A stretch of 64,000 nucleotides of DNA from a virus (lineage: Duplodnaviria > Caudoviricetes), in the IMG/VR virus record IMGVR_UViG_3300009155_000035; one strand, written 5' to 3'. The notes under the pieces are model-generated. The model did not search any database and was not told the DNA's origin. It worked only from the letters and a program-made list of their open reading frames with translations. A program made the position numbers and the translations under genes. The number at the start of each line of letters is the position of its first letter. Positions within the stretch are counted from its first letter, which is position 1. Of the stretch, positions 8,780 through 24,869 are shown in pieces.

Positions 8780-8971
8780 ATGAAAGATATTATCACTGGT
8801 ATACTATACCTAGCAATGGGTTTGTTTTTTAATTACTACTCACGCAATTATGCGTTTGGTACATCACATTCCATGGGTCCCGGTTACTTTCCTGCTATCC
8901 TTTCAACAGGATTAATGATCCTGGGTATTTTGATTGCAAGCATTGGGGTTTATAAAAAATGGAAATCATAA
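8780..8971 (+). CDS. tctB: Short TctB-like membrane subunit (63 aa, two TM helices)
   Basis: MGPGYFP motif between two hydrophobic segments; stop overlaps the tctA start. Confidence 0.7.
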   Translation: MKDIITGILYLAMGLFFNYYSRNYAFGTSHSMGPGYFPAILSTGLMILGILIASIGVYKKWKS

Positions 8972-10443
8972 ACAATCTTGCACTGGGATTTAGTGTTGCA
9001 TCATCAATGCAGAACATGCTTTGGTGTTTTCTGGGGGTGTTCATTGGGACCATAGTTGGCATGTTGCCCGGAGTTGGTCCGCTGTCAGCCATTGCTATTT
9101 TATTGCCGCTGACCTATACTCTGGGAGATCCTGCCACTGGAATTATTTTCCTAGCTGGTATCTATTATGGTACGCAGTACGGAGGATCAACCACAAGTAT
9201 TCTGTTGAACATGCCCGGGGAGGCAGCGTCGGTGGTTACGACCATTGACGGGTACCAAATGACACGTCGTGGGCGCGGTGGTGCGGCCTTGGCAGTTGCG
9301 GCCCTGGGCTCATTTGTGGCCGGTACTTTGGCCACTGTGTTGGTCGCCTTGGTAGGCGAGCCATTGGCCAAAGTTGCATATATTTTTGGCCCAACGGAAT
9401 TTACAGCACTAATGACTCTGGGGCTAGTATCTGCTGTGGCACTCAGCAATGGTTCATTACTCAAAGGCCTAGGTGTGGTTATCATAGGATTTTTGCTGGG
9501 CATGGTTGGCGCCGACGTAAATTCTGGTGTTGTGCGATTTGACTTTGGCATTCCTGAATTATATGATGGGTTGCCTTTTCCAATCTTGGCCATGGGGGTA
9601 TTTGGACTCAGCGAAATTTTGTACAGCATGTTGCATGACAAGACTCCAAAAAAAGTAGAAATTCCCAAGATTTCAGACTTGTATCCAACAAGAGAAGAAC
9701 TCAACAAATCAGTGAAGCCTATTTTGCGTGGCACAGCCTTGGGATCATTTTTGGGATTGATTCCCGGGTCTGGTGGTATTGTAAGTTCATTTGCCAGCTA
9801 CGCAATCGAAAAGAAAATGTCAAAGACTCCCTGGGAGTTTGGCAAGGGTGCAATTGAAGGTGTTGCTGGTCCTGAAAGTGCCAACAATGCCAGCGCACAA
9901 ACAGGCTTTATTCCCATGTTGAGCTTGGGTATTCCCACTACCAGTAGCATGAGCTTGATGATGGCGGCACTGATGTCGTTTAACATACAACCAGGGCCCA
10001 TGGCAATTTCTAGCAACCCAACATTGTTCTGGGGATTGATTGTGTCTATGTGGATTGGTAACATCATGTTGGTGATTTTAAACTATCCCATGGTGGGTCT
10101 GTGGGTGCGCTTGTTGCAAATTCCAAGATGGGTTTTGTTTCCCACGGTGATTGTGATTTGCGTTGCCGGGACATACTATATCAACAATCAATGGTTCTCA
10201 GTACTGCTGTTGATACCGTTTACTATAATTGGATATCTACTCAAAGCACTGGAATGTGAACCGGCTCCAATGGCCATGGGTTTTGTAGTTGGCGCACTTT
10301 TTGAGGAATACTTGAAACGAGCCCTGTCAATCTCCGAAGGATCTTGGATGATATTCTTAAATAGTAATATTTCATTATCTTTGCTGAGTCTCACTGCGAT
10401 CTTGACAGCTTATGGGATTTATGCTAAACTACGTAAAAATTAA
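8959..10443 (+). CDS. tctA: Tripartite tricarboxylate transporter permease TctA
   Basis: GTIVGMLPGVG, GIYYGTQYGGSTTSILLNMPGE, GVAGPESANNA, LSLGIP; very hydrophobic 494 aa. Confidence 0.93.
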   Translation: MEIINNLALGFSVASSMQNMLWCFLGVFIGTIVGMLPGVGPLSAIAILLPLTYTLGDPATGIIFLAGIYYGTQYGGSTTSILLNMPGEAASVVTTIDGYQMTRRGRGGAALAVAALGSFVAGTLATVLVALVGEPLAKVAYIFGPTEFTALMTLGLVSAVALSNGSLLKGLGVVIIGFLLGMVGADVNSGVVRFDFGIPELYDGLPFPILAMGVFGLSEILYSMLHDKTPKKVEIPKISDLYPTREELNKSVKPILRGTALGSFLGLIPGSGGIVSSFASYAIEKKMSKTPWEFGKGAIEGVAGPESANNASAQTGFIPMLSLGIPTTSSMSLMMAALMSFNIQPGPMAISSNPTLFWGLIVSMWIGNIMLVILNYPMVGLWVRLLQIPRWVLFPTVIVICVAGTYYINNQWFSVLLLIPFTIIGYLLKALECEPAPMAMGFVVGALFEEYLKRALSISEGSWMIFLNSNISLSLLSLTAILTAYGIYAKLRKN

Positions 10444-11430: not shown

Positions 11431-11591
11431 TCTAGATGAAGGTGACTTTGTTATCGATGACGAAGTCGCCCTTGGTCGTAATCTAAGAGCACGTAATTTT
11501 GGTAAAATAGTTCATGAAAATATTGTTTTATCAGATTATGTAAATTTTAGATTATGGCTAGCTAGACAATTAGCAATGAAAAAGTATGATG

Positions 11592-11619
11592 AAGTCTGGG
11601 GGTAAAATCCCAGACTTTT
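11592..11619 (+). terminator. Intrinsic terminator
   Basis: AAGTCTGGG/CCCAGACTT stem followed by TT. Confidence 0.6.
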
Positions 11620-11626
11620 CTAATTT

Positions 11627-12294: not shown

Positions 12295-12323
12295 TTGACT
12301 GTAAGTGACAATGGTGTTATACT
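12295..12323 (+). promoter_or_regulatory. sigma70 promoter P1 of the tRNA/ncRNA operon
   Basis: TTGACT-17-TATACT. Confidence 0.75.
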
Positions 12324-12396
12324 AGAGTTAAGTTAGAAGCATAAGTGTTCCTAATGTGCAACTGGAAAATGTTGTAAAAATACAACAAAAAAACAG

Positions 12397-12425
12397 TTGA
12401 CACAAAAAAACAAGTGTCGTACAAT
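12397..12425 (+). promoter_or_regulatory. sigma70 promoter P2 of the tRNA/ncRNA operon
   Basis: TTGACA-17-TACAAT preceded by an A-rich UP-element-like tract. Confidence 0.85.
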
Positions 12426-12435
12426 TGATACTTGC

Positions 12436-12463
12436 GCTGATAACTCAGCAATGTTCTTTAAAA
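12436..12463 (+). promoter_or_regulatory. boxB-like hairpin plus boxA-like antitermination site
   Basis: GCTGA-TAAC-TCAGC, then TGTTCTTTAAAA (rrn boxA consensus TGCTCTTTAACA). Confidence 0.6.
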
Positions 12464-12500
12464 ATTTGCATTTCATGTAGTGATCCCGGGCTTGCTCGGG

Positions 12501-12765
12501 CACTATATGTAAACACACTAAGGTTACCTACACTGTTAGGGGTGAACGAAGGGCGATTGCGTAGAAGAAATTCTCGGCCTTGATACCCATGAAGCAGGAA
12601 GCCCGAAATAGATACCTGAGCCGATACCAAAGGCAACGAGTGGTTGAAATAGGGAACAACTTCCGGGAATGCGACAGGCTAAACAGTAGGCAGTAATGAG
12701 AAAAAACGTAGGTCGCCAGGTGGTGCTGAGATTTATATCCTTCCTTAATGTGTTTTCATATAGTG
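12501..12765 (+). ncRNA. Candidate ~220-nt structured RNA enclosed by a 23-bp stem
   Basis: CACTATATGTAAACACACTAAGG (12501-12523) pairs with CCTTAATGTGTTTTCATATAGTG (12743-12765) with 2 mismatches; no convincing ORF. Confidence 0.55.
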
Positions 12766-12770
12766 AATAT

Positions 12771-12846
12771 GGTCTTAAAGTGTTCATGGACGCACGACGG
12801 CTTGTCACGCCGTAAGAGTGGGGATCGTTACCCCCTAAGACCGCCA
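12771..12846 (+). tRNA. tRNA-Asp(GTC)
   Basis: Loop TT-GTC-AC; atypical T-loop ATCGTTA; CCA. Confidence 0.85.
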
Positions 12847-12925
12847 AGTTTTGAGAGTCACATCGCCTGGACACTTCCCTCGGTGACGAAGCACTAGGTC
12901 CTGCAACCGTGACTCTCCTTTATTT

Positions 12926-13000
12926 GCTCGATTCGTCTATCGGTTAGGACATCTGGTTTTCATCCAGGCAAGAGCGGTTCGACTCCGCTATCGAGTACCA
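12926..13000 (+). tRNA. tRNA-Glu(TTC)
   Basis: Loop TT-TTC-AT; CCA. Confidence 0.92.
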
Positions 13001-13005
13001 AACAT

Positions 13006-13091
13006 GGAGATGTGGCAGAGCGGTTGATTGCACCAGACTGTAAATCTGGCCCCTAAAAAGCACGGTGGTTCAAATCCATCCATCTCCACCA
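13006..13091 (+). tRNA. tRNA-Tyr(GTA)
   Basis: Loop CT-GTA-AA, long variable region, CCA. Confidence 0.92.
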
Positions 13092-13094
13092 AGA

Positions 13095-13292
13095 ACGTTC
13101 CGGGTGTCTCCGGATAGTGTGACCCACACGATGAGAAGTAGTGTGACAACTACGGGTGGTAGTCTTCGAACCCAAAGGCCGCTGGCAATGCGAGAACGGT
13201 CCCTGTCGGGAAGCGGGTGGAAGGAGTGTGTGATGGGTATGATAGCGTCATATCTTGATACTCTATAATTACCGCCGGGGGATGCAGAGCAT
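13095..13292 (+). ncRNA. Candidate ~200-nt multi-hairpin RNA
   Basis: GC-rich run of hairpins (TCCGG/CCGGA, GTGTG/CACAC, GTAGT/ACTAC, TATGA/TCATA) directly after tRNA-Tyr. Confidence 0.45.
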
Positions 13293-13297
13293 TTTTG

Positions 13298-13455
13298 TTT
13301 TTATAGTCAAGCATCGATACAGGTATCGTTGTGGGACGCCACAACTATGCGGGCCTAACTGTGCGAGGAACAGGTCCTGACATAACTGCTATTCGCTTGT
13401 CAGAGGAAGCACCTTTGTTGACAAATCGGCATCTCTCGATGCTTGACTATAAAAA
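13298..13455 (+). ncRNA. Candidate RNA enclosed by a perfect 20-bp inverted repeat
   Basis: TTTTTATAGTCAAGCATCGA / TCGATGCTTGACTATAAAAA flanking ~118 nt with internal hairpins. Confidence 0.55.
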
Positions 13456-13458
13456 TAT

Positions 13459-13536
13459 GTAGGGATGGCAGAGTGGTCAAATGCAACGGACTGCAAATCC
13501 GTAAAGCCGTGAGTTCAAATCTCACTCCCTACTCCA
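13459..13536 (+). tRNA. tRNA-Cys(GCA)
   Basis: Loop CT-GCA-AA; U73; CCA. Confidence 0.92.
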
Positions 13537-13544
13537 ATCAACAC

Positions 13545-13645
13545 GGGAGAGTTGCTAATATTGGCCTTAGGGCGAGCCTTATAAACTCGTAAGCACTGTC
13601 TAGATAAGGCAGCGAATGTGGGTTCGATTCCCACCTCTCCTACCA
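13545..13645 (+). tRNA. Atypical tRNA with TAT anticodon (nominally Ile/AUA) and a long variable arm
   Basis: 7-bp acceptor GGGAGAG/CTCTCCT, canonical T-arm, loop CT-TAT-AA, extra arm CTGTCT..AGGCAG, A73, CCA; 101 nt. Confidence 0.75.
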
Positions 13646-13661
13646 TTAAGTAAGTTTTAAC

Positions 13662-13736
13662 CGCGGGGTACGTCAGCGGTAGACTAGCGGGCTCATAACC
13701 CGAAAGACGGAGGTTCGATTCCTTCCCCCGCAACCA
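13662..13736 (+). tRNA. Initiator tRNA-fMet(CAT)
   Basis: C1:A72 mismatch and three G:C pairs next to the anticodon loop. Confidence 0.92.
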
Positions 13737-13741
13737 TTTGT

Positions 13742-13815
13742 GTATCCCTGGTGTAATGGCAGCATCGCAGTCTCCAAAACTGTTGGTCGGGGTTCGAGTC
13801 CCTGGGGGTACGCCA
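13742..13815 (+). tRNA. tRNA-Trp(CCA)
   Basis: Loop CT-CCA-AA; CCA. Confidence 0.92.
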
Positions 13816-13820
13816 TGTTT

Positions 13821-13894
13821 GGGCTGGTAGTTAAATGGGATAACGGTGGCTTTGCAAGCCTCAGTTGGGAGTTCGATTCTCCCTCGGTCCACCA
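13821..13894 (+). tRNA. tRNA-Ala(TGC)
   Basis: Loop TT-TGC-AA; G3:U70 identity pair; CCA. Confidence 0.9.
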
Positions 13895-13917
13895 AACATA
13901 TGATATATAAGGATATT

Positions 13918-14352
13918 ATGTTGCACTTAATCAAATCTGTTTCTGATTCGTTCGTTGAGTGTCTTAAGCAAGATCCTGTGCGCCCGCATATTCCTGAATC
14001 ATTGAGAGTTGGTAACAACCGCGATATCTTTGTGTCGCGAAAGGAAGATGCAGGTGCTCGAGCAGTTACTTGTGTAAGTTACCAACAACGCATCCCGGAA
14101 AGTGAAAATGAACTTTTCGAGGATACTGACACCCCCGAGGTTGTAGTTTTCTATACTATATGGAGCTATGAACCCGGTGCCGGTCGTGATTTAATCTTTG
14201 AGGCTCGAGACTGGATTCTAAAAAATCGCCCCGAGATCAAAAGATTTATAACCTTGAGTCCACCAACTGAAATGGCTCGAAGGTTTCACCTAAAGAATGG
14301 TGCTATAGTACATCGTGTCAATCAGAGCACAGTGAACTACGAGTACCTTTGA
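13918..14352 (+). CDS. Hypothetical protein, possibly GNAT-like fold
   Basis: ATG 13918 after AAGGA; VFYTIWSYEPGAGRDLI...TLSPPTEMARRFHLKNGA. Confidence 0.65.
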   Translation: MLHLIKSVSDSFVECLKQDPVRPHIPESLRVGNNRDIFVSRKEDAGARAVTCVSYQQRIPESENELFEDTDTPEVVVFYTIWSYEPGAGRDLIFEARDWILKNRPEIKRFITLSPPTEMARRFHLKNGAIVHRVNQSTVNYEYL

Positions 14353-14358
14353 CATTAT

Positions 14359-14434
14359 TGGGGGTTCGCCAAGTTGGTAAGGCATCGGATTTTGATTCCG
14401 ACATGCGGTGGTTCGAATCCATCACCCTCAGCCA
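14359..14434 (+). tRNA. tRNA-Gln(TTG)
   Basis: Loop TT-TTG-AT; CCA. Confidence 0.92.
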
Positions 14435-14455
14435 AATTTTACAATGGAGAATGAC

Positions 14456-14476
14456 ATGAAACGTACCAAACGTTAG
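14456..14476 (+). other. Mini-ORF MKRTKR* with RBS, followed by a hairpin
   Basis: GGAG RBS, ATG AAA CGT ACC AAA CGT TAG, then GTCATAGAC/GTCTATGAT stem. Confidence 0.35.
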
Positions 14477-14536
14477 TGTCGTCATAGACTTCCGTAGGTC
14501 TATGATTGGCACGTAAAATCAATTAATACGACTTAT

Positions 14537-14612
14537 GGGACTATAGCTCAGCCGGTAGAGCAGTGGACTTTTAATCCATTGGTCGCGAGTTCGAATCTCG
14601 CTGGTCCTACCA
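14537..14612 (+). tRNA. tRNA-Lys(TTT)
   Basis: Loop CT-TTT-AA; CCA. Confidence 0.93.
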
Positions 14613-14697
14613 TATAAAAACACATTACCAACGGTATCGCTTGTAGCAAAGCCCGTGCCAAAGTAGTCAGTCTAGGATAGTGTGTTTCTATATGGTA
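14608..14697 (+). ncRNA. Long-stem element closing a 52-nt loop
   Basis: TACCATATAAAAACACATT / AGTGTGTTTCTATATGGTA. Confidence 0.4.
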
Positions 14698-14724
14698 TTT
14701 TAGAAATAAGTATTAATGAGTTTT

Positions 14725-14799
14725 GCCCTTGTAGCTCACTGGTAGAGCACTCGCCTTGTAAGCGATAGGTAGTTAGTTCGATTCTAACCTGGGGCACCA
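14725..14799 (+). tRNA. tRNA-Thr(TGT)
   Basis: Loop CT-TGT-AA; CCA. Confidence 0.92.
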
Positions 14800-14805
14800 A
14801 AATTT

Positions 14806-14879
14806 GCGGGGTTCGTATAGTGGTAATACCTCAGCCTTCCAAGCTGATGCGGAGAGTTCGATTCTCTTACCCCGCTCCA
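14806..14879 (+). tRNA. tRNA-Gly(TCC)
   Basis: Loop CT-TCC-AA; U73; CCA. Confidence 0.93.
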
Positions 14880-14887
14880 TAGTTTAT

Positions 14888-14963
14888 TCCCTAGTAGCTC
14901 AGAGGTAGTAGCAACGGACTGTTAATCCGTGTGTCGGTGGTTCGATCCCACCCTGGGGAGCCA
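14888..14963 (+). tRNA. tRNA-Asn(GTT)
   Basis: Loop CT-GTT-AA; CCA. Confidence 0.93.
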
Positions 14964-14969
14964 AGTTTT

Positions 14970-15046
<77 letters not shown>

Positions 15047-15056
15047 GTTTTAGTAT

Positions 15057-15134
15057 ACCGCCTTAGCTCAATTGGATCAGAGCACTGTGCTACGAACGCA
15101 GGGGTTAGGAGTTCAAATCTCTTAGGTGGTACCA
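15057..15134 (+). tRNA. tRNA-Arg(ACG)
   Basis: Loop CT-ACG-AA; CCA. Confidence 0.92.
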
Positions 15135-15144
15135 AAGTTTACAA

Positions 15145-15234
15145 GGTGCGGTCCCATAATGGTATTGGAGCGGATTGCTAATCCGTCGAGTGGTGAAAGC
15201 CGCTTTCTGAGTTCGAGTCTCAGTCGCACCGCCA
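15145..15234 (+). tRNA. tRNA-Ser(GCT)
   Basis: Loop TT-GCT-AA; long variable arm; G73; CCA. Confidence 0.92.
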
Positions 15235-15240
15235 GTGTTT

Positions 15241-15315
15241 CGGTCTTTGGTGAAATGGATATCATGCTTGGCTTCGAACCAAGCGGTGTGGGTTCGATTC
15301 CTGCAGGACCGGCCA
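15241..15315 (+). tRNA. tRNA-Arg(TCG)
   Basis: Loop CT-TCG-AA; CCA. Confidence 0.9.
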
Positions 15316-15354
15316 AGTTTTATGTATATAAGTATATACACTCAAGGGGAAATC

Positions 15355-15654
15355 ATGTCACATGACGCAGACAAGTTTAAAAACAGCAAACGTAGACTCA
15401 AAGACGATAACGCTGTAAAAAAACAAGTTAAAATTGCCAAAGCGCATGGGTTAACTGACAATGATATTGCAGTAAAAGAGCCGCATCGCATGGTCAAACA
15501 TCATGCCATGGATTGCGGTCAACCCGGCTGCATGCTGTGCGGGAATCCGCGCAAGACATTTAACGAGCTTACTGCTCAAGAAAAACGTTTGTTTCAAGAC
15601 TTGGAAAAAGTCACAGACAAGCATTCAAATGGCACTATTCCCCCAGAAGAATAA
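15355..15654 (+). CDS. Hypothetical basic protein with a His/Cys cluster (possible Zn ligand set)
   Basis: ATG 15355 after AAGGGG; HHAMDCGQPGCMLCGNPRK. Confidence 0.7.
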   Translation: MSHDADKFKNSKRRLKDDNAVKKQVKIAKAHGLTDNDIAVKEPHRMVKHHAMDCGQPGCMLCGNPRKTFNELTAQEKRLFQDLEKVTDKHSNGTIPPEE

Positions 15655-15659
15655 ATCAT

Positions 15660-15735
15660 GGTGTTAGTAGTGTAGTGGTCTGCACATTGCTCTGTGAAAG
15701 CGAAGGTATGGGATCGTTCCCCATCTAACACCCCA
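15660..15735 (+). tRNA. tRNA-His(GTG)
   Basis: G-1:C73 pair; loop CT-GTG-AA; T-loop ATCGTTC; CCA. Confidence 0.88.
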
Positions 15736-15741
15736 AAATTT

Positions 15742-15817
15742 AGGAAGTTAGCTCAGTTGGTAGAGCATCTGCCTTACAAGCAGAATGTCATCGGTTCGAT
15801 CCCGGTACTTCCTACCA
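15742..15817 (+). tRNA. tRNA-Val(TAC)
   Basis: Loop CT-TAC-AA; CCA. Confidence 0.93.
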
Positions 15818-15829
15818 TTAATATAGTTT

Positions 15830-15905
15830 GGCGACGTAGCTCATCAGGTAGAGCGACAGACTGAAAATCTGTGCGTGGCTGGTTCGAGTCCAGCCGTTGC
15901 CACCA
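15830..15905 (+). tRNA. tRNA-Phe(GAA)
   Basis: Loop CT-GAA-AA; CCA. Confidence 0.93.
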
Positions 15906-15911
15906 GGTCAT

Positions 15912-15985
15912 AGCCGGTTAGCTCAAAGGTAGAGCACTCGACTGATAATCGAGAGACACAGGATCGATACCTGTACTGGCTACCA
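15912..15985 (+). tRNA. tRNA-Ile(GAT)
   Basis: Loop CT-GAT-AA; T-loop ATCGATA; CCA. Confidence 0.9.
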
Positions 15986-16136
15986 AAATTTTTTCTGGAA
16001 CAAAGTTAGCTCTAGGCCGATTTAACACTGGGTCTGGCACAAACTTTTGACTAGTGGTATAGGATGTTCTAGGAGTATACGGTAGCCTTGCCGATTTCGT
16101 ATACAAGATATCTGTATATGTGTTATAATCAGTCAT
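15918..16136 (-). CDS. Possible 72-aa antisense ORF under a late-type promoter
   Basis: TAAATA at 16146-16141 lies 4 nt before the ATG; the ORF fills the non-tRNA gap and runs antisense into tRNA-Ile. Confidence 0.3.
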   Translation of the reverse strand: MTDYNTYTDILYTKSARLPYTPRTSYTTSQKFVPDPVLNRPRANFVPEKILVASTGIDPVSLDYQSSALPLS

Positions 16137-16147
16137 AATGTATTTAA

Positions 16148-16230
16148 GCGGACGTGGCGTAATTGGTAGCCGCGCTGGTCTTAGAAGCCAGTCTTTCGGG
16201 GTGTGAGTTCGAGTCTCACCGTCCGCACCA
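16148..16230 (+). tRNA. tRNA-Leu(TAG)
   Basis: Loop CT-TAG-AA; variable arm; CCA. Confidence 0.92.
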
Positions 16231-16236
16231 AAATTT

Positions 16237-16323
16237 GCGAGTGTGGTGAAATAGGTAGACACAAGAGACTTAAAATCTCTCGCCCGAAAGGGCGTGCCGG
16301 TTCGATTCCGGCCACTCGTACCA
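16237..16323 (+). tRNA. tRNA-Leu(TAA)
   Basis: Loop CT-TAA-AA; variable arm GCCC-GAAA-GGGC; CCA. Confidence 0.93.
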
Positions 16324-16330
16324 TTGTTTT

Positions 16331-16496
16331 GCAAACAAAAAAACGTGTAGGGGTTTCCCCCGGCTGGCACTGTGCAGTGATGCACATCTAGCGGATCAGG
16401 TGTTTGGGTGTGAGGCCCAAAGTTGTTGCCGGTGATAAGTCAATCTATCGTCGATTGGTGTTCAGCCACACGCCCTAGCGAAACCGGTTTGTTTGC
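16331..16496 (+). ncRNA. Candidate multi-branched structured RNA
   Basis: Closed by GCAAACAAA/TTTGTTTGC; internal stems GTGCA/TGCAC, TTTGGG/CCCAAA, CAATC/GATTG, GGCTG/CAGCC. Confidence 0.5.
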
Positions 16497-16514
16497 TTTT
16501 TTTGTAAATACTGC

Positions 16515-16709
16515 ATGATTGTTGAATCAATATATGCGGTAGTTGACACAGTAGATCAACGACAACGTGTTAGGCATGTTACTAGCTTAGTGGACCAACA
16601 AGGTAGAACGTACACCGAAATTGAGCAGTATTTTTATACGTTATACAACAACAAGGGTACGCTTGAAGTAGAAAATGTCAAAGGCACGAATGTAGACCAC
16701 CAAGCATAA
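16515..16709 (+). CDS. Hypothetical protein (64 aa)
   Basis: ORF preceded by TAAATA at 16505. Confidence 0.6.
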   Translation: MIVESIYAVVDTVDQRQRVRHVTSLVDQQGRTYTEIEQYFYTLYNNKGTLEVENVKGTNVDHQA

Positions 16710-16710
16710 C

Positions 16711-16787
16711 GCCCTTGTGATGGAATTGGTATACGTGTCGGATTCAAAATCCGAATTTTGCGGGTTCGAGTCCCGCTGAGGGCACCA
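16711..16787 (+). tRNA. tRNA-Leu(CAA) lacking the long variable arm
   Basis: Loop TT-CAA-AA; Leu-type D-loop GGAATTGGTATAC; only 5-nt variable loop; CCA. Confidence 0.85.
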
Positions 16788-16792
16788 AATTT

Positions 16793-16942
16793 ATGAAATT
16801 ATTTGAAGCAACAATTAGAATAAACGGCAAAGAATTCAAAGATCGTGTTGGCGCAGAAAATGCACAAGAAGCAATGAAGCTTCTGCAACAACGGCATGGT
16901 CCAAGAGCTGTTCCGTACTTGCCTCACATGATTCCAAGTTAA
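16793..16942 (+). CDS. Hypothetical 49-aa protein (MKLFEATIRINGKEFKDRVGAENAQEAMKLLQQRHGPRAVPYLPHMIPS)
   Basis: Fills the gap between two tRNAs exactly. Confidence 0.6.
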   Translation: MKLFEATIRINGKEFKDRVGAENAQEAMKLLQQRHGPRAVPYLPHMIPS

Positions 16943-16943
16943 T

Positions 16944-17017
16944 GCGGGTATGATGTAATGGTAGCCTGTGACCTTGCCAAGGTTAGAGTGCGAGTTCGAT
17001 TCTCGCTACCCGCTCCA
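16944..17017 (+). tRNA. tRNA-Gly(GCC)
   Basis: Loop TT-GCC-AA; U73; CCA. Confidence 0.92.
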
Positions 17018-17022
17018 AATCT

Positions 17023-17097
17023 GGTGATATGACGTAGATGGATGCGTAGCGGTTTCATAAGCCGACGAGGAAGGATCGATACCTTCTATCACCACCA
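17023..17097 (+). tRNA. tRNA(CAT), probably elongator Met (Ile2 not excluded)
   Basis: Loop TT-CAT-AA; G1:C72 paired; T-loop ATCGATA; CCA. Confidence 0.85.
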
Positions 17098-17108
17098 TAA
17101 ATAAAATC

Positions 17109-18275
17109 ATGCTTATTGATGCCGATACACATTATGCACACCCTGATCTGTTTGATCATCTATCTTTTCAACATACTCCCTGGTTAGAGTTTCGCAAAAA
17201 AACACAAAACACCAATTTTGCAATCATCGACCGTATATGGAAAAGTGTATATGCAAACATTTGTGACGACTCCTGGCCCACTGTGCCAAACGCAGATCGT
17301 TTTCATGTGTTGCCCAAACACATTAGACAAGAAATTGCCGAGCATGATCTAGGCGATATATTTGTTGCCAAGGACTTGTCAAAAATAAAATACAAATTCC
17401 CGGATCCAAGTTCTACATTACCTGACATTGATGAGCTTGTTGACATTTGTCAAAACAGGCTTGGGGTTGACCGTGCGTTGATAAATGTGCAACCGTATCA
17501 GCAAGGCATTGGTTATTATGTGTCGCCTGCAGAAGCAGTGGAATTAATGACCACATACAATCGAGGCATGCTTGATGTTGTTAAGCCCTACAACAAATTT
17601 GATTTAACTGCTTGGTTGGCACTGCAAGATATTCAAGCCAGTGAACAAGAACTTGACTGGATCATTGATAACGACTTCTTTGCTGTATTTTTAAGCTTTC
17701 ATCCTGCATGGGGATTCATTCCTAGAGCAAAAAACATTTTTGCCAAGTGTAACAAAGCTGGTATGCCAATATACTTGCATCCTACTGCTGGCAGAGATAC
17801 CCCGTTTGATTACAACACTGACTGGACTGTTAACTGTGAATTATATCAAAAAATGAAACAAAGATGGCCCAGTGACGGACAGTCTTGGAAGATCACAGTT
17901 GCCAGTATCATTACCGAATACATCATGAAAGGCATGCCCGATCTTAAAATATTGGTTATTGAGCGTGGGATCAATTGGATCAAAGAGATAGAAGAATTTT
18001 TTGCTGAACAAGGTTTGCCTAATCCACTACCTATACTAAAAAACAATTTTTGGTACAGCACAGAGGTGGAGCACCCAACATTTTTAAGAGATGCAGAGTA
18101 CATTGGATGGGATCGTGTTATGTTTTCTACAGACTACCCCCACAATGAGGATGCTGGCTTGAACAAATACAAAGACGCCATCATGCTTGAGCAATATGTC
18201 AACAGTGGTAAAATTAACTCACATGACTATGAGTTGTTTTCACACAAAAATTACCTAAAACTAAAACAACGATAG
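17109..18275 (+). CDS. Amidohydrolase-2 family metal-dependent hydrolase
   Basis: MLIDADTHY (DxDxH), IYLHP, VIERG, FSTDYPH. Confidence 0.8.
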   Translation: MLIDADTHYAHPDLFDHLSFQHTPWLEFRKKTQNTNFAIIDRIWKSVYANICDDSWPTVPNADRFHVLPKHIRQEIAEHDLGDIFVAKDLSKIKYKFPDPSSTLPDIDELVDICQNRLGVDRALINVQPYQQGIGYYVSPAEAVELMTTYNRGMLDVVKPYNKFDLTAWLALQDIQASEQELDWIIDNDFFAVFLSFHPAWGFIPRAKNIFAKCNKAGMPIYLHPTAGRDTPFDYNTDWTVNCELYQKMKQRWPSDGQSWKITVASIITEYIMKGMPDLKILVIERGINWIKEIEEFFAEQGLPNPLPILKNNFWYSTEVEHPTFLRDAEYIGWDRVMFSTDYPHNEDAGLNKYKDAIMLEQYVNSGKINSHDYELFSHKNYLKLKQR

Positions 18276-18304
18276 TTGACTTTATATTGCTCCTATAGTA
18301 TAAT
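18276..18304 (+). promoter_or_regulatory. Consensus sigma70 promoter overlapping tRNA-Thr
   Basis: TTGACT-17-TATAAT; the -10 box is the tRNA D-arm sequence. Confidence 0.5.
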
Positions 18305-18362
18305 GGCAATACACGCCCTTGGTAAGGGCGAGCTACAAGTTCAATTCTTGTTAGGAGCACCA
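18289..18362 (+). tRNA. tRNA-Thr(GGT)
   Basis: GCTCCTA/TAGGAGC acceptor; loop TT-GGT-AA; CCA. Confidence 0.9.
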
Positions 18363-18379
18363 CCAAATTGGAATATAAT

Positions 18380-18559
18380 ATGAGCAAAGGTTCAAGACCA
18401 AGACCGTTCAGTGTTAGCCAAAAAGATTTTGGAAACAACTTTGATGCAATCTTTAGGAAACCCAATCCTAAAGATGTTGACGATGCCAGAGCTGAAGACG
18501 AAGCTTTTAAGTCAGTTGAGGAAAAGTTTAACCAACACAAACAACATGGCTCTAATTGA
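18380..18559 (+). CDS. Hypothetical small phage protein
   Basis: MSKGSRPRPFSVSQKDFGNNFDAIFRK. Confidence 0.7.
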   Translation: MSKGSRPRPFSVSQKDFGNNFDAIFRKPNPKDVDDARAEDEAFKSVEEKFNQHKQHGSN

Positions 18560-18965
18560 ATCAACATTTACTAACTCTCCCGGGCTAGTGCCCTTGAAGG
18601 TACAGTGTTTGATCAACAATGCAGTAGTATGGGAATATGTACTTGATTCAACACCTGTGACTATGAAAGTCAACCTTGACGACCATGTTGCATCAACTCA
18701 TCAAGTGGCAATTACTTTTGCAGGCAAAACTGGGATTGAGAATGATGATGCCAGTAGCACTGTTGTGCAAATCAGCAATATTCAAATAGAATCTATCAAC
18801 ATTGAGCCTGTGTTACAACGTATAGCTCAATATCATCACAACACAAACGGCTACAGTGATCCGCTGGTCAGTGAATACAGTAATTGCATAGGATTTGATG
18901 GTAGTTTACAATTTGAACTGGAAACTCCGGTCAGCAACTGGTTTTACAAAAATTATCCTTGGTGA
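18546..18965 (+). CDS. Hypothetical radical-SAM-associated protein (paralog family, copy 2)
   Basis: LKVQCLINN...ITFAGK...CIGFDGSLQFELETP echoes 6707 and 49452; ATG 18546. Confidence 0.65.
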   Translation: MALIESTFTNSPGLVPLKVQCLINNAVVWEYVLDSTPVTMKVNLDDHVASTHQVAITFAGKTGIENDDASSTVVQISNIQIESINIEPVLQRIAQYHHNTNGYSDPLVSEYSNCIGFDGSLQFELETPVSNWFYKNYPW

Positions 18966-19813
18966 CCAAGCACTCGTGTATTCAACAATTGGTTTTTAAA
19001 TTTTGATTGATTAGTCTCATAAACCAAATTGGTTGGACAAAATTTACATTGTGGGATCGCACTAGATGAAAACAAGTCCAAATCGTCTTGTGTGATTGCT
19101 CCGGGTTCAAGTGGTTGATATTGATCATACAGTTCTGGCACTGGCTGCCCAACTTGATTGAAATATTCTGGCAACAGATACACTACTCCGCATTTATAAA
19201 GTTTTCCATCAATAAAATGGTGGCAACGTTTCATTGTACACACACGATGTGCTTCAGTTGGATCTGAATCATGCAATTGATATTGGCCATCCTGAAAAAT
19301 GTTGTTGTGGAAATTTTCTCCACTTTTGATGTTGATCGTAATGCCCTGGGCCGTTTCGAACGCAATGCCATTGACAACTAAATTATTGTGTTGTATAATT
19401 TGTTTAATTCGGCAGTGACCAAAAGCTTGATTAATTTCACCAAGAACATAACTTCTCATTAGAGGATTGTGAACACAGATGTCTAATGTCCAACCAGTAT
19501 TTGCCAGCGCATCGGCTAGGCCAGATAGCTTAGTTAATCGAGTTCCATTTGAAACCACTTTGCCAACAGCATTGGGCCAACATTGGTGTATTCCTCGAAT
19601 CCAATCTGGAAGATCAGAATTCAAAGTTGGTTCGCCGCCAAGTATATTACAACTTTCTAAGTGTATGCACTCGGCCCAGCGTTGATAAGTACCTAAATTG
19701 AATTTATAATGTCCTTTGAATTTGCGATTGTTGAACCTATTACATTGCGGACAATCTAAATTACAAACATTGGTAACATAAAATTCTGCATATTTTAGAG
19801 TTGGTTTGGTCAT
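18953..19813 (-). CDS. Radical SAM protein with a C-terminal Cys cluster
   Basis: NVCNLDCPQC; ILGGEP; CTMKRC...LYKC...CKFC. Confidence 0.85.
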   Translation of the reverse strand: MTKPTLKYAEFYVTNVCNLDCPQCNRFNNRKFKGHYKFNLGTYQRWAECIHLESCNILGGEPTLNSDLPDWIRGIHQCWPNAVGKVVSNGTRLTKLSGLADALANTGWTLDICVHNPLMRSYVLGEINQAFGHCRIKQIIQHNNLVVNGIAFETAQGITINIKSGENFHNNIFQDGQYQLHDSDPTEAHRVCTMKRCHHFIDGKLYKCGVVYLLPEYFNQVGQPVPELYDQYQPLEPGAITQDDLDLFSSSAIPQCKFCPTNLVYETNQSKFKNQLLNTRVLGHQG

Positions 19814-19863
19814 AGTGATATTTACATTTAAAAGTTGAGATAGTTTTTTATTAAGGTAATACC

Positions 19864-20337
19864 ATGAAAATAAATGTAGAAGAAGTTGTTAGATTTATTC
19901 AGGCGCAAGGCCTGGGCACACGGGTATACCTTGGAGCTGATTCTGACCGCTACAAAGTAGATGGCACCTGGTGGGCCGAATACACAGTGGCCGTTGTTGT
20001 ACACATCAATGGCAAAAACGGTTGTAAAATTTTTGGGGAAGTATCTAGAGAACGAGACTATGATCAAAAGGCAAGTCGTCCAAGCATGCGTCTTATGAAC
20101 GAAGTATATCGTGTAAGCGATATGTTTCAAAGGCTTGCGCCTGCGCTGGAAGATCTCGAAGTTGAAGTTCACTTGGATATTAACCCAAATGAAATGTACG
20201 GCAGTTCATGTGCTGTACAACAGGCAATTGGATACATTCGCGGTACTTGCAATGTTATTCCAATGGTCAAACCAAATGCATTTGCCGCAAGCTATGCAGC
20301 CGATAGACTGAAAAGTCTCAAAATATCTAATGGATAA
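19864..20337 (+). CDS. RNase H-like protein (YkuK/DUF458-like)
   Basis: YLGADS...RLMNEV...EVHLDIN...FAASYAADR. Confidence 0.75.
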   Translation: MKINVEEVVRFIQAQGLGTRVYLGADSDRYKVDGTWWAEYTVAVVVHINGKNGCKIFGEVSRERDYDQKASRPSMRLMNEVYRVSDMFQRLAPALEDLEVEVHLDINPNEMYGSSCAVQQAIGYIRGTCNVIPMVKPNAFAASYAADRLKSLKISNG

Positions 20338-20347
20338 AGGAACAATC

Positions 20348-20578
20348 ATGAATGGTCTCACAAGTGAAGGTGCAGTTAATGCAGTTGGCAATCGATACGA
20401 TTTGGTTCTTATTGGTTCCCGAAGAGTGCGAGAATTGAACGCAGGGTGGCACTCGACAATCAAAAATCCCAAAGGTCCGATTACAACTGCATTGCAGGAA
20501 ATTGAAGAAGGTCTAGTTGGGATTGATTACTTAAAACGCCCTCAAGAGGTACGTCGAGAGCGCAAGTACAGCAAATAA
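20348..20578 (+). CDS. rpoZ: RNA polymerase omega subunit-like protein
   Basis: AVNAVGNRYDLVLIGSRRVREL...PITTALQEIEEG. Confidence 0.82.
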   Translation: MNGLTSEGAVNAVGNRYDLVLIGSRRVRELNAGWHSTIKNPKGPITTALQEIEEGLVGIDYLKRPQEVRRERKYSK

Positions 20579-20590
20579 GAGGAATAACAC

Positions 20591-20665
20591 ATGGACGACG
20601 ATCTGGTAAGATTTGTAGTAGGTGTAGTGATTGTTGTTGCAGTAGGTGCGGTAGTACTTCTATAG
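20591..20665 (+). CDS. 24-aa single-TM peptide (MDDDLVRFVVGVVIVVAVGAVVLL)
   Basis: GAGGA RBS; fully hydrophobic stretch. Confidence 0.45.
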   Translation: MDDDLVRFVVGVVIVVAVGAVVLL

Positions 20666-20696
20666 AAATATGTCAAAAGCACAAGTGTAGTAAATA

Positions 20697-21095
20697 AGAG
20701 CTATTGCTGTATGAAGCAATGCAAAAGGTGTTCTGGACGGGGGTTCGATTCCCCCCGGCTCCACCAAAAGGGAATTCAATGATAGTGTGTGTATGCAGAA
20801 AGATCAGTGATCGTGATTATGATTCCGAAGAGCAACTCCGAGATCGTATCATGCAACCTGATTTTCATTGTGGTTTTTGTCAACAACGCTATGAACTAGA
20901 GTTTTCTTCTGAAGGGGTCGATCGGTTTCGACAGGGCAAGGAGTAGCAGAGTGGACAGCTCGGCAAAGCAGAAGCCGTTAGGATTGGGGTAACCCGGTCG
21001 TAGAAGCAAAAAACGTAAACGCAAACGACGAACAGTTCGCATTGGCCGCCTAAACGCAGCCTAGGGTAAGACATACCTCGTAACAGAAACTCAAA
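20697..21095 (+). ncRNA. ssrA: Circularly permuted (two-piece) tmRNA
   Basis: T-arm plus CGGCTCCACCA (ends 20766) comes BEFORE the 5' strand GGGGTCG (20914); G3:U70 pair; tag ANDEQFALAA* at 21021-21053; no tRNA-like 3' end after the tag. Outer boundaries are approximate. Confidence 0.9.
20779..20946 (+). CDS. Bfd-like [2Fe-2S] ferredoxin-type peptide (55 aa) in the tmRNA intervening segment
   Basis: MIVCVCRKISD...HCGFC (C-x-C-x24-C-x2-C); AAGGGA RBS right after the CCA. Confidence 0.65.
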   Translation: MIVCVCRKISDRDYDSEEQLRDRIMQPDFHCGFCQQRYELEFSSEGVDRFRQGKE

Positions 21096-21148: not shown

Positions 21149-21260
21149 TTGCAACGCCGGCAGGGCCGACGTCGGATCAATATTGACGCTTGAAGTAGCA
21201 AAACTTCTTTACTGTTGTGATACAACAGAACGCCGACCGTGAACAGAATTCTTCTGCAAG
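21149..21260 (+). ncRNA. Candidate structured ncRNA under a TATAAATA promoter
   Basis: TATAAATA at 21138; ends TTGCA/TGCAA; hairpins CGGC/GCCG, GAAGT/ACTTC, CTGTTG/CAACAG; GTCGG/CCGAC long-range pair. Confidence 0.45.
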
Positions 21261-22455: not shown

Positions 22456-23340
22456 ATGAAAAAGCTGTTTGCAATTTTTGCAATGATGTGCGCTGTAACA
22501 TCTGTTATGGCACAGGATATTCGTGTAGTACTACCCAACCCAAGTGGTGGGACGTTCGACAAAGTTGGTCGTGCCTGGGCCAAGGCTTTGGAAAATGCTC
22601 TTGGTAAACCGGTCACAGTTGAAAATCAACCTGGCGCCAATGGTGCAATCGGCACAAGGTTTGTGGCCAACTATGCTGGCTCAGACATCGTATTGCTTGG
22701 ATCTGGTACTACTTTGTTTATTAACAACGATCAAGTTGATGGTATTAATGACGTTGAACCAATTTACTACTTGGGGTATGTACCAGAAGCTATTGTCGCT
22801 CGCCCCGACTTTAAATACAACACAGTTGCAGAGTTTGTAAAGAACAGCAACGAGCGTGTTACGCTTGCTAACTTGTCCAATGCCGATGCATCAACAATTT
22901 TTAAAAGTGTTGTTAAGAAATCCAATATTAGTTTAATAACCTATAAAGGATCTGCACAGAGCATGACCGATGTAATTGGTGGGCATGTTGATTTGAGTTC
23001 GGCTGGCCTAGCCAATGTTAAACAACTATACGATACCGGTAAAATTAAAATACTTGGTTACTCAGGAAGCCAACGAAGCCCGCTTATTCCCAACGTTCCC
23101 ACGTTTGCTGAACAAGGTATTGCAATGCCAGCAACATTGAAGTTTTATGTTTATGCCAGCAAGAATGCCAACAAAGATCAAATTGCACAGATTGTCAGAG
23201 CACTAGACAAAGCTGTAGCCAGCCCAGAGTTCCAAGAGTCACGCAACCAACTAAACTTGATTGCCGAGCCAGTCAAAGGTAGTGCTAGACAACATTTTAT
23301 TGATTCTACGAAAGAAATTTACGATATTTTGAAGAATTAA
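22456..23340 (+). CDS. tctC: Bug/TctC periplasmic substrate-binding protein
   Basis: Signal peptide; PSGGTFD..GRAWAKALENALGKPVTVENQPGANGAIG; YKGSAQSMTDVIGGHVD. Confidence 0.88.
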   Translation: MKKLFAIFAMMCAVTSVMAQDIRVVLPNPSGGTFDKVGRAWAKALENALGKPVTVENQPGANGAIGTRFVANYAGSDIVLLGSGTTLFINNDQVDGINDVEPIYYLGYVPEAIVARPDFKYNTVAEFVKNSNERVTLANLSNADASTIFKSVVKKSNISLITYKGSAQSMTDVIGGHVDLSSAGLANVKQLYDTGKIKILGYSGSQRSPLIPNVPTFAEQGIAMPATLKFYVYASKNANKDQIAQIVRALDKAVASPEFQESRNQLNLIAEPVKGSARQHFIDSTKEIYDILKN

Positions 23341-23365
23341 TACTGTTGTATTGAAACAACACCCT

Positions 23366-23780: not shown

Positions 23781-24869
23781 ATGTCACATGAAAGTCGCAC
23801 CGTAACCGCAGTCGGCGCTCGCAAAGCTGTTATGAAATGCTTTGCAAAGAAACGTCCCATGTTTTTGTGGGGTCCTCCTGGCATCGGCAAGAGCGAAGTA
23901 GTTGCTGACATTACCAAAGAACTTGGTGGTTACATGATTGACTTGCGCTTAGGTCAAATGGATCCCACTGACATTCGTGGTATCCCGTTCTTTAACAAAG
24001 AAGCAGGCAAGATGGATTGGGCTCCCCCGATTGATTTACCAGACGAAGATCTGGCCAGCCAGTATCCTGTGGTTGTGTTGTTCATGGATGAAATGAACTC
24101 TGCGGCTCCGGCAGTACAGGCAGCGGCATATCAGCTAGTACTAAACCGTCGTATTGGCAAATATCGACTGCCAGACAATGTTGTTATGATTGCCGCAGGC
24201 AATCGTGAAAGCGATAAAGGTGTTACTTTCCGTATGCCTACTCCGCTGGCAAATCGTTTTATTCACGTTGAGATGAAACCCGACTTCCCTACATGGCAAG
24301 AATGGGCTGTTAAGAATCAAATCCACAAGGACGTGGTTGGTTACTTGAGTTTTGCCAAGCAAGACTTGTACGACTTTGATGCCAAGTCTAGTTCACGTGC
24401 ATTTGCTACACCACGCTCTTGGAGTTTTGTTAGCGAGTTGTTGGAAGACGAAGACATGGACGAGACCACTGCTACTGACTTGATTGCAGGTACAGTTGGT
24501 GAAGGTCTTGCTGTTAAGTTTATGGCTCACCGCAAGATTTCAGGTAAACTGCCCAAGCCAGAAGAAATTCTCAGTGGCAAGGCCAAAGAACTCAAGGTAA
24601 AAGAAGTGTCGGCAATGTACAGTCTTGTTATCAGCTTGTGCTACGAACTCAAGAATGCTGTTGAGAACAAAGTCTCCGACAAAGAGTTTCATGAGATGAG
24701 CGACAACTTCTTTGCTTACATGATGAAGAACTTTGAAACCGAGCTTGTGATTATGGGTGCTCGCATCGCGCTTACCACTTACAATCTTCCGTTCCAACCT
24801 ACCAAGCTCAAGAATTTTGACGAGTTCCACAGCAAATATGGCAAGTATATCTTGCAAGGCAACTCTTAA
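23781..24869 (+). CDS. MoxR-like AAA+ ATPase
   Basis: Walker A GPPGIGKS; Walker B LFMDEMN; AGNRESD. Confidence 0.9.
   Translation: MSHESRTVTAVGARKAVMKCFAKKRPMFLWGPPGIGKSEVVADITKELGGYMIDLRLGQMDPTDIRGIPFFNKEAGKMDWAPPIDLPDEDLASQYPVVVLFMDEMNSAAPAVQAAAYQLVLNRRIGKYRLPDNVVMIAAGNRESDKGVTFRMPTPLANRFIHVEMKPDFPTWQEWAVKNQIHKDVVGYLSFAKQDLYDFDAKSSSRAFATPRSWSFVSELLEDEDMDETTATDLIAGTVGEGLAVKFMAHRKISGKLPKPEEILSGKAKELKVKEVSAMYSLVISLCYELKNAVENKVSDKEFHEMSDNFFAYMMKNFETELVIMGARIALTTYNLPFQPTKLKNFDEFHSKYGKYILQGNS

Follow-up and report, generated by a model that had tools for sequence, protein, structure and literature searches.

How is host RNA polymerase carried through the tRNA arrays of large phages? These arrays are long, structured and untranslated, and their end-to-end transcription has hardly been studied. 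The stretch of DNA analysed here (64 kb; hereafter the window) derives from an uncultivated giant lake phage, and identical stretches were found on JGI lake-metagenome contigs of 107–120 kb. It holds a tail-fibre gene, many radical-SAM genes and TctA/TctC genes, and its RNA genes comprise an array of 29 tRNAs (12771–17094), three more tRNAs and a circularly permuted tmRNA. One contig with a stretch identical to the window falls in the 0.2–1 Mb size class.

A preliminary description of the region preceding the array had proposed that it mimics the leader of a bacterial rRNA (rrn) operon and that the phage borrows the antitermination system of its host. From the sequence features described below, positions 12295–12500 are probably the leader of a phage stable-RNA operon, in which host Nus/SuhB antitermination would act over the untranslated array, since an rrn-like promoter, hairpin and boxA are shared by many related phages. 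An rrn-type boxA at the head of the array is a testable answer to the above question, i.e., that the host Nus/SuhB complex is reused without an N protein.

Layout of the leader and its transcription unit

Apart from a palindrome, to which no strand applies, and a convergent gene at the far end, all features of the unit lie on the + strand. Two sigma70-type promoters stand in tandem. The first, P1 (12295–12323), begins one base past the stop codon of an upstream SDR-like gene and consists of TTGACT, a 17-nt spacer and TATACT with a TG extended −10 (10 of 12 matches). The second, P2 (12397–12425), has TTGACA, a 17-nt spacer and TACAAT (11 of 12 matches) and is followed by an AT-rich discriminator. 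The preliminary description had placed them about 100 bp apart; the two −35 hexamers are separated by 102 bp. Directly 3′ of P1 lies a stretch (12324–12356) that, by by-eye comparison with the intact hairpin–boxA units of two related loci (L089 and L095), appears to be a decayed copy of such a unit; its TGTTCCTAA (12346–12354) fails the boxA consensus, and the site after P2 would be the only intact one. The boxA of the P2 leader is also contained in P1 transcripts, and a single intact boxA would serve the transcripts of both promoters, as in rrn operons.

Upstream of P2 we found the palindrome TGTTGTA-AAAA-TACAACA (12370–12387), which stops 10 nt short of the −35 hexamer and may be an operator or a promoter element of the UP type, and a run of seven A (12387–12393) directly before the −35 at about −45 to −39, the position of the proximal UP subsite. 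The A-tract had been recorded previously; the conserved palindrome in the same stretch has to be added to it. The first 35 nt of the P2 transcript contain a small hairpin in the boxB position (hairpin 1, GCTGA/TAAC/TCAGC; 12436–12449, approximately +4 to +18) and, 2 nt further on, a consensus boxA, TGTTCTTTAAAAA (12452–12464), the start of which is 26 nt from the −10 and which is the predicted binding site of host NusB–NusE (S10). A CUUG-capped hairpin follows (hairpin 2; 12474–12509, loop 12491–12494, inner stem CCCGGG/CTCGGG), and hairpin 1, the 13-mer and hairpin 2 all lie where they had been reported. Next, a closing helix of ~21 bp (12501–12766) is predicted to form between arms at 12501–12524 and 12743–12766 around an RNA of ~220 nt, which would be the first product of the operon. 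The distance from boxA to the first tRNA in the window is 307 nt.

The array itself (12771–17094) consists of the 29 tRNA genes, structured spacers and small conserved ORFs (13918–14352, 15355–15654, 16515–16709 and 16793–16942), and L089 has ORF calls of matching sizes. Judged from gene orientation only, the stretch 17109–18965, with an amidohydrolase-like gene (17109–18275), a tRNA-Thr (18289–18362) and two small ORFs, probably forms the tail of the same transcription unit, the probable end of which is bounded by a convergent gene that begins at 18953 on the − strand. The transcript had been described as about 6 kb of largely untranslated RNA. This length is reasonable, but the resulting ~6.6-kb unit also has several conserved small ORFs and a 388-aa gene, and “largely untranslated” is a good description for the first 4.7 kb only.

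A lake metatranscriptome contains an exact 229-nt contig over 12521–12749 with a depth of 13.5, compared to 2.5–4.5 for its other exact contigs here; this roughly fivefold depth over the first downstream RNA, which is based on contigs and not on reads, is a weak hint of expression. None of the exact contigs covers the leader at 12339–12520, and one crosses P1 (12188–12338), which indicates either that transcription continued into P1 from upstream or that the library contained DNA.

Conservation of boxA and its link to tRNA genes

When both strands of the whole window are searched, TGTTCTTTAAAAA is the sole exact match to the degenerate rrn boxA pattern TGYTCTTTRAMAA. Its core (12453–12463) matches the published consensus of functional boxA elements, GYTCTTTAANA (PMC5725501), at every constrained position, and eight boxA nucleotides are read base-specifically by NusB–NusE (PMC3177189). 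This consensus occurs twice in the window, compared to 0.39 expected matches, and the second occurrence, at 23987, lies inside a conserved ORF. The case for boxA rests on its conservation in relatives and not on its count within the window. Promoter-like sites by themselves are likewise weak evidence (28 in 10 kb versus 20.6 ± 5.1 expected).

Relatives were collected by means of a YkuK/RNase H-like gene (19864–20337) located 7.4 kb downstream, for which 6873 homologues were obtained, the best at 75–92% identity. This anchor led to 80 metagenome loci, to which longer contigs were added via exact look-ups. Many of these loci carry, on the tRNA strand, a palindrome (GTTGT-N-ACAAC), a near-consensus sigma70 promoter, a small hairpin, boxA and RNA cargo in that order. 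In typical related units boxA is separated by 13–30 nt from a tRNA, most often tRNA-Glu or tRNA-Gln, whereas the subgroup to which the window belongs has boxA, hairpin 2, the helix-enclosed RNA and then tRNA-Asp, Glu and Tyr. L089, on a contig of 352 kb, has the tandem-promoter layout of the window, with its tandem promoter aligning with P1; L095 and L038 have one promoter with a tRNA upstream of it. An alignment of four close leaders shows no variation in TTGAC or in the TA...T of the −10 of P2.

It had been suggested that conservation of boxA in related phage tRNA arrays should be checked. An alignment of 16 related leaders revealed boxA as ten consecutive invariant columns with diverging flanks, and boxA is mostly unpaired in the predicted folds. 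Of 23 related arrays, eight have an exact boxA and 16 have one with at most one mismatch. No boxA was found in the related arrays L021 and L092, and some arrays begin with a promoter directly before a helix-enclosed RNA, without boxA. Conservation thus does not extend to every array, and boxA must be dispensable or replaceable in part of them. Across the related loci, a boxA with at most one mismatch follows promoter-like sites in 12 of 101 cases before tRNAs, in 1 of 170 before ORFs and in 1 of 221 elsewhere.

Cultured phages were of little help. The leader DNA has no match among them, and the tRNA region of Stenotrophomonas phage DLP6, the cultured phage with the closest YkuK homologue (58% identity), lacks boxA. 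An exact-pattern search of viral contigs for the hairpin plus boxA gave no hits, nor was anything found in viral contigs with the SDR-like gene, the in-array amidohydrolase or TctA as anchors; homologues of the SDR-like gene in other phages are not syntenic with tRNA arrays. A typical promoter–boxA module likewise had no relevant match in the phage collection.

A broader picture was obtained by scanning IMG/VR for a promoter followed after 8–38 nt by boxA, which yielded at least 120 loci, with 111 distinct units among the matches listed. As a control, the letters of boxA were reversed in the same pattern, which then matched 96 loci (66 distinct units). Judged by raw locus counts, promoter-plus-boxA in viral contigs is, therefore, not far above the control, and many viral boxA matches that are not linked to tRNAs may be due to chance. 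The signal resides in the tRNA-linked half: a tRNA or tmRNA occurs within 450 nt downstream in 55 of the 111 units among the matches listed versus none of the 66 reversed-motif units (Fisher p = 1e-14). The gene follows within 60 nt in 35 of the tRNA/tmRNA-linked units among these matches, and the exact 13-mer of the window is present in 47 of the 55 tRNA-linked viral units listed.

The same set of modules informs on the elements upstream of P2. Among the matches listed, a second promoter 81–107 nt 5′ of the boxA promoter occurs in 18 of 54 tRNA-linked modules compared to 7 of 55 others. The tandem arrangement of P1 and P2 is thus a trait of a subgroup, comprising about a third of the tRNA-linked units listed. 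Again among the matches listed, 24 of 54 tRNA-linked modules and 2 of 55 others have the palindrome GTTGT-N-ACAAC in the 90 nt upstream; its centre is usually 6 nt and AT-rich, and it tends to end 7, 10 or 13 nt short of the −35. This tight spacing favours an element acting at the DNA level, such as a regulator site or an UP-like contact, over a hairpin of the preceding transcript. A-richness at the UP position is modestly higher in the tRNA-linked than in the other modules listed (on average 4.7 versus 3.2 A in 9 positions). An UP element had been proposed for P2; the A-tract lies where a proximal UP subsite would be, but the palindrome is the stronger signal across modules, and “palindrome plus A-tract” would be the more accurate name for the proposed element.

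Comparison with bacterial rrn leaders

Bacterial genomes were scanned for a promoter plus the exact 13-mer, resulting in at least 120 loci. In 31 of the 120 loci listed, the 5′ end of a 16S rRNA gene follows 87–214 nt after the 13-mer, and 24 more are too near a contig end. The 16S-linked named records listed belong mostly to the Beta- and Gammaproteobacteria and include Sutterella, Porticoccaceae, Arenicellales, Catenovulum and a freshwater betaproteobacterial single-cell genome. The occurrence of an identical 13-mer in beta- and gammaproteobacterial 16S leaders fits the beta-type tmRNA and the sigma70-like promoters of the phage. In addition, TGCTCTTTAACAA, TGTTCTTTGACAA and other boxA variants of the phage units also occur in bacterial rrn leaders, and the median distance from the −10 to boxA is similar among the matches listed (25 nt in phage units versus 28 nt in rrn leaders). 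One match in the viral contigs (L112) resembles the enterobacterial rrn P2 leader, the contig stopping before the 16S rRNA gene.

The rrn leader of the E. coli type has P1 and P2 about 100–120 bp apart, an A/T-rich UP element at −40 to −60, Fis sites and the series boxB–boxA–boxC, and its antitermination complex contains NusB–NusE, NusA, NusG, SuhB and S4. The phage leader also resembles this type in its sigma70 promoters, tandem in the case of the window, in its untranslated and structured cargo with the first product inside a long helix, and in the hairpin that precedes boxA by 0–4 nt. A hairpin of at least 5 bp ending 0–4 nt before the motif was found in 41 of 55 phage units and 19 of 29 rrn leaders among the matches listed, compared to 5 of 62 controls. 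The boxB–boxA order of rrn leaders, which had been noted for this locus, is indeed present, with hairpin 1 ending 2 nt 5′ of boxA. That hairpin 1 is formed is supported by the relatives, in which pairing is kept despite sequence change (GCTGA/TCAGC, GATTGA/TCAATC, GTTAA/TTAAC and GCGTTAA/TTAACGC). In 12 units, 84.7% of the cells are paired versus 71.4% in shuffled alignments, a value that none of 500 shuffles reached; four of six pairs exhibit compensatory changes, and slid registers drop to 17–42%.

The phage leaders differ from rrn leaders in other respects. A GU-rich boxC (TGTGTGGG-like) 3′ of boxA is absent from the window and from all 55 phage units, whereas 24 of 31 rrn leaders have it (among the matches listed). 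The sequence GGGCACT after boxA was considered as a boxC remnant and rejected; this sequence forms the 3′ side of hairpin 2, and relatives have an unrelated pairing sequence there. The discriminator, taken as the 7 nt that follow the −10, has a GC content of 0.34 in phage units versus 0.68 in rrn leaders among the matches listed, the window having TGATACT, and the phage promoters thus lack the signature of stringent control. While rrn operons have a second boxA in the 16S–23S spacer, no second match with at most one mismatch was found on the + strand at 12465–21000. The palindrome 5′ of the −35 is another difference from rrn leaders. The loops of rrn hairpins are diverse, whereas hairpin 1 is capped by GAAA in 23 of 41 phage units and by GCAA in three more (GNRA type; among the matches listed), and the stem beside the loop (TTGA/TCAA or TTAA/TTAA) is conserved as well; the UAAC loop of the window is an exception to GAAA. 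Finally, the phage cargo consists of tRNAs, RNAs without an Rfam match and small ORFs. The claim that the region mimics an rrn operon hence applies to the promoter, the hairpin and boxA, but not to boxC, the GC-rich discriminator and the spacer boxA. The lack of a boxC and of a stringent discriminator, the GAAA loop and the palindrome point to phage-specific control of initiation combined with elongation of the host type.

Proposed function of the leader and related systems

We consider the following mechanism the most probable. Host sigma70 RNA polymerase would start at the two tandem promoters, and host NusB–NusE (S10) would bind boxA as it emerges. Together with NusA, NusG and SuhB, this would turn the polymerase into the fast form, resistant to Rho, that transcribes rRNA operons. 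The modified polymerase would then cross ~4.7 kb of tRNAs and structured RNAs without protection by ribosomes, and probably continue to ~18.9 kb; the 5′ leader, tethered to the polymerase, may also aid the formation of long closing helices. Given their extensive structure, tRNA arrays may be poor substrates for Rho, and the need for antitermination is thus an assumption.

A second reading overlaps with the one above; in it, boxA would recruit the Nus complex mainly for folding and processing of the RNA and not for protection against Rho. The leader would be held on the polymerase and the nascent RNA looped out, so that distant helix arms can pair, as proposed for the 16S leader–trailer helix. 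Two papers connect the Nus complex with the folding of rRNA and with this helix (PMC4807359; PMC10250234). In the window, the 5′ arm of the long-range helix of 21 bp starts 37 nt after boxA, and a helix arm is found at a fixed distance after boxA throughout its subgroup. Hairpin 2 would compete with it, because the 3′ side of this hairpin and the 5′ arm of the closing helix overlap. In 16 relatives the base of hairpin 2 (ATAGT../..ACTAT) is kept, and the inner stem and loop are wholly different yet still pair. The predicted folding energy of the whole region 12432–12772 is no better than that of shuffled sequences (z = 0.12), and the informative parts of this modelled fold are the individual helices only. 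Neither the leader nor 12500–12770 matched a family in Rfam at the gathering or relaxed thresholds. However, most of the tRNA-linked modules listed have a tRNA 13–30 nt after boxA and no long helix, and a role specific to the helix cannot, therefore, explain the whole family. We regard a primary role in folding as possible, though clearly less likely than Rho-resistant transcription by the host Nus/SuhB complex.

An improbable alternative is that hairpin and boxA form a nut site like that of phage lambda, served by an N-like phage protein that binds the loop. In lambda nut sites boxA precedes boxB, and boxA is shortened, weaker and dependent on N. The phage leader shares with nutL and nutR a boxA and a small hairpin with a GNRA-like loop, elements that in lambda make the host polymerase resistant to termination; the nut boxA is bound by NusB–NusE (PMC3177189; PMC2800207). 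The frequent GAAA and GCAA loops of the phage units, set against the diverse loops of rrn leaders, the conserved loop-side stem and an omega-like protein encoded by the phage, which would be another modification of the host polymerase, are in line with such a protein. The order of hairpin and boxA is, however, that of rrn leaders, boxA has the full consensus, the loop of the window is UAAC and not GNRA, about a quarter of the phage units listed lack a hairpin, and the cargo is stable RNA instead of delayed-early mRNA. No candidate for an N-like gene is seen in the visible 64 kb, where no Nus- or N-like Pfam family occurs among the genes; such proteins are small, arginine-rich and without a Pfam family or reliable profile.

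Even less probable is that the 13-mer has no relation to Nus factors and represents an element of the initial transcribed region, a site at which RNase E or RNase III enters to mature the 5′ end of the first tRNA, or a sequence recognised by a phage protein. The 13-mer is AU-rich and single-stranded like RNase E sites, and its position 13–30 nt before the first tRNA in 35 of the modules listed would be possible for a processing signal. In the window, however, it is 307 nt away from the first tRNA and not adjacent to it, and the match with the full boxA consensus, the variants shared with rrn leaders, the hairpin and the spacing all argue for boxA. A chance resemblance in AT-rich intergenic DNA, where promoter-like sites are common and where even the reversed motif gives 96 matches in viral contigs, is hardly credible given the invariance of boxA in diverged relatives, the covariation of the hairpin and the tRNA linkage (55/111 listed versus 0/66).

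The reading as host Nus/SuhB antitermination can tentatively be taken further. The palindromic operator, a non-stringent sigma70 promoter, the GNRA hairpin and boxA might constitute a modular stable-RNA cassette that has spread among many uncultivated phages of Proteobacteria and that combines the elongation machinery of host rRNA synthesis with initiation controlled by the phage; we consider this rather unlikely in its full form. The phage factors would be the omega-like subunit, which is encoded 8 kb downstream, and a protein that binds either the palindrome or the hairpin. If true, the synthesis of phage tRNAs would escape the shut-off of host rrn operons by ppGpp/DksA under the stress of infection.

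With respect to other occurrences of boxA, Stringer et al. reportedly described it, in 2020, in the leaders of CRISPR arrays. It is also present outside rrn operons in the 5′ UTR of suhB and in other gammaproteobacterial genes (Baniulyte et al., 2017; PMC5725501), and according to its authors non-coding RNAs fell outside that survey (PMC5725501). These cases share with the phage leader a single consensus boxA near the 5′ end, which there governs the action of Rho on poorly translated or untranslated RNA; they differ in being chromosomal and, at suhB, repressive, whereas the phage-borne element is coupled to a hairpin and heads tRNA arrays. GTTCTTTGAAA is a boxA variant that differs from the TGTTCTTTAAAAA of the window. 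A search of the full-text literature retrieved papers about boxA in rrn operons, lambda, suhB and CRISPR arrays, and none about boxA before phage tRNA arrays; one match for boxA together with a tRNA array turned out to be the PCR primer BOXA1R. The leader would represent the known boxA mechanism in a phage-specific cassette with new cargo, which would widen the targets of boxA beyond rRNA, suhB and CRISPR arrays. For annotation, boxA is a simple marker for the start of phage stable-RNA units, some of which carry RNAs without a known family, such as the ~220-nt RNA.

Phage T4 has a tRNA cluster that includes the stable RNAs C and D, is transcribed by host polymerase and is cut by host RNases. 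We know of no boxA or Nus dependence in this cluster, which, like the unit described here, is a phage operon in which tRNAs and small stable RNAs are interspersed.

Palindrome and possible module turnover at the boxA leader

The palindrome GTTGT-N-ACAAC, found in the window at 12370-12387 upstream of the boxA promoter, is strongly enriched 5' of boxA promoters: it precedes 24 of the 54 units with a tRNA or tmRNA gene within 450 nt downstream (tRNA-linked units), vs. 2 of the 55 others. Its distance to the -35 element is 7, 10, or 13 nt, and we consider it a candidate operator for a regulator. Two extra copies occur in the window, 3' of the tmRNA (21214-21226) and of the TctC gene (23345-23360).

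An apparent decayed duplicate of the hairpin-boxA unit lies 3' of P1 (12324-12356), with TGTTCCTAA at 12346-12354. At the same place in L089, a related locus on a 352-kb metagenome contig, the hairpin has been kept and boxA lost. Together, these two post-P1 units suggest that the hairpin-boxA module turns over by duplication.

boxA units in other settings

Five viral contigs (L113, L129, L174, L175, and L181) carry an identical unit consisting of a promoter, the hairpin GTTAACC..GGTTAA and TGCTCTTTAACAA, downstream of which no tRNA was detected in any of the five. A long ORF begins 208 nt 3' of this unit and encodes 573-574 amino acids in three of them. A hairpin before boxA is also present in 23 of 56 other units that are not tRNA-linked and, therefore, phage boxA leaders may head cargo other than tRNAs, too.

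In four metagenome loci related to the window (L025:1081, L030:7239, L051:1191, and L064:1863), boxA directly follows a terminator-like GC hairpin and U-run without an intervening promoter. These promoterless elements lie ca. 28 nt 5' of the first tRNA, which is tRNA-Gln where identified (L051, L064). A boxA behind a terminator-like hairpin may serve to re-arm read-through polymerases.

RNAs in and near the tRNA array

The leader is followed, at 12501-12766, by an RNA of ca. 220 nt that belongs to no known family and is enclosed in a 21-bp helix. A lake metatranscriptome contains an exact 229-nt contig over 12521-12749, at a depth ca. 5 times that of the other exact contigs of that run on the window. 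Rfam identified two tRNA-like genes, at 13545-13642 (40.5 bits) and 17023-17094 (46.5 bits), for neither of which ARAGORN made a call; the former match, at 98 nt, is of unusual length for a tRNA. Upstream of the array, a promoter-like site and then a strong terminator-like hairpin (11591-11618) occupy 11563-11626, immediately 5' of a tRNA-Ser gene (11627), and boxA is absent from this single-tRNA unit.

Omega-like protein and transporter genes

An RNA polymerase omega-like protein is encoded on the plus strand at 20330-20578 (PF01192, E = 2.3e-10). Its gene lies beside the conserved YkuK/RNase H-like gene and is closely followed by the tmRNA; it is syntenic in four relatives (L089, L092, L094, and L095). 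Omega contributes to a ppGpp site on RNA polymerase, a link that may be relevant to the AT-rich discriminators found at the phage promoters.

The window further contains the tripartite tricarboxylate transporter genes TctA (8959-10443) and TctC (22456-23340). For TctB there is a weak match only, and a further stretch of the gene set is L001 1672-1863, in a related metagenome locus. This unusual auxiliary metabolic set is a possible clue to the host.
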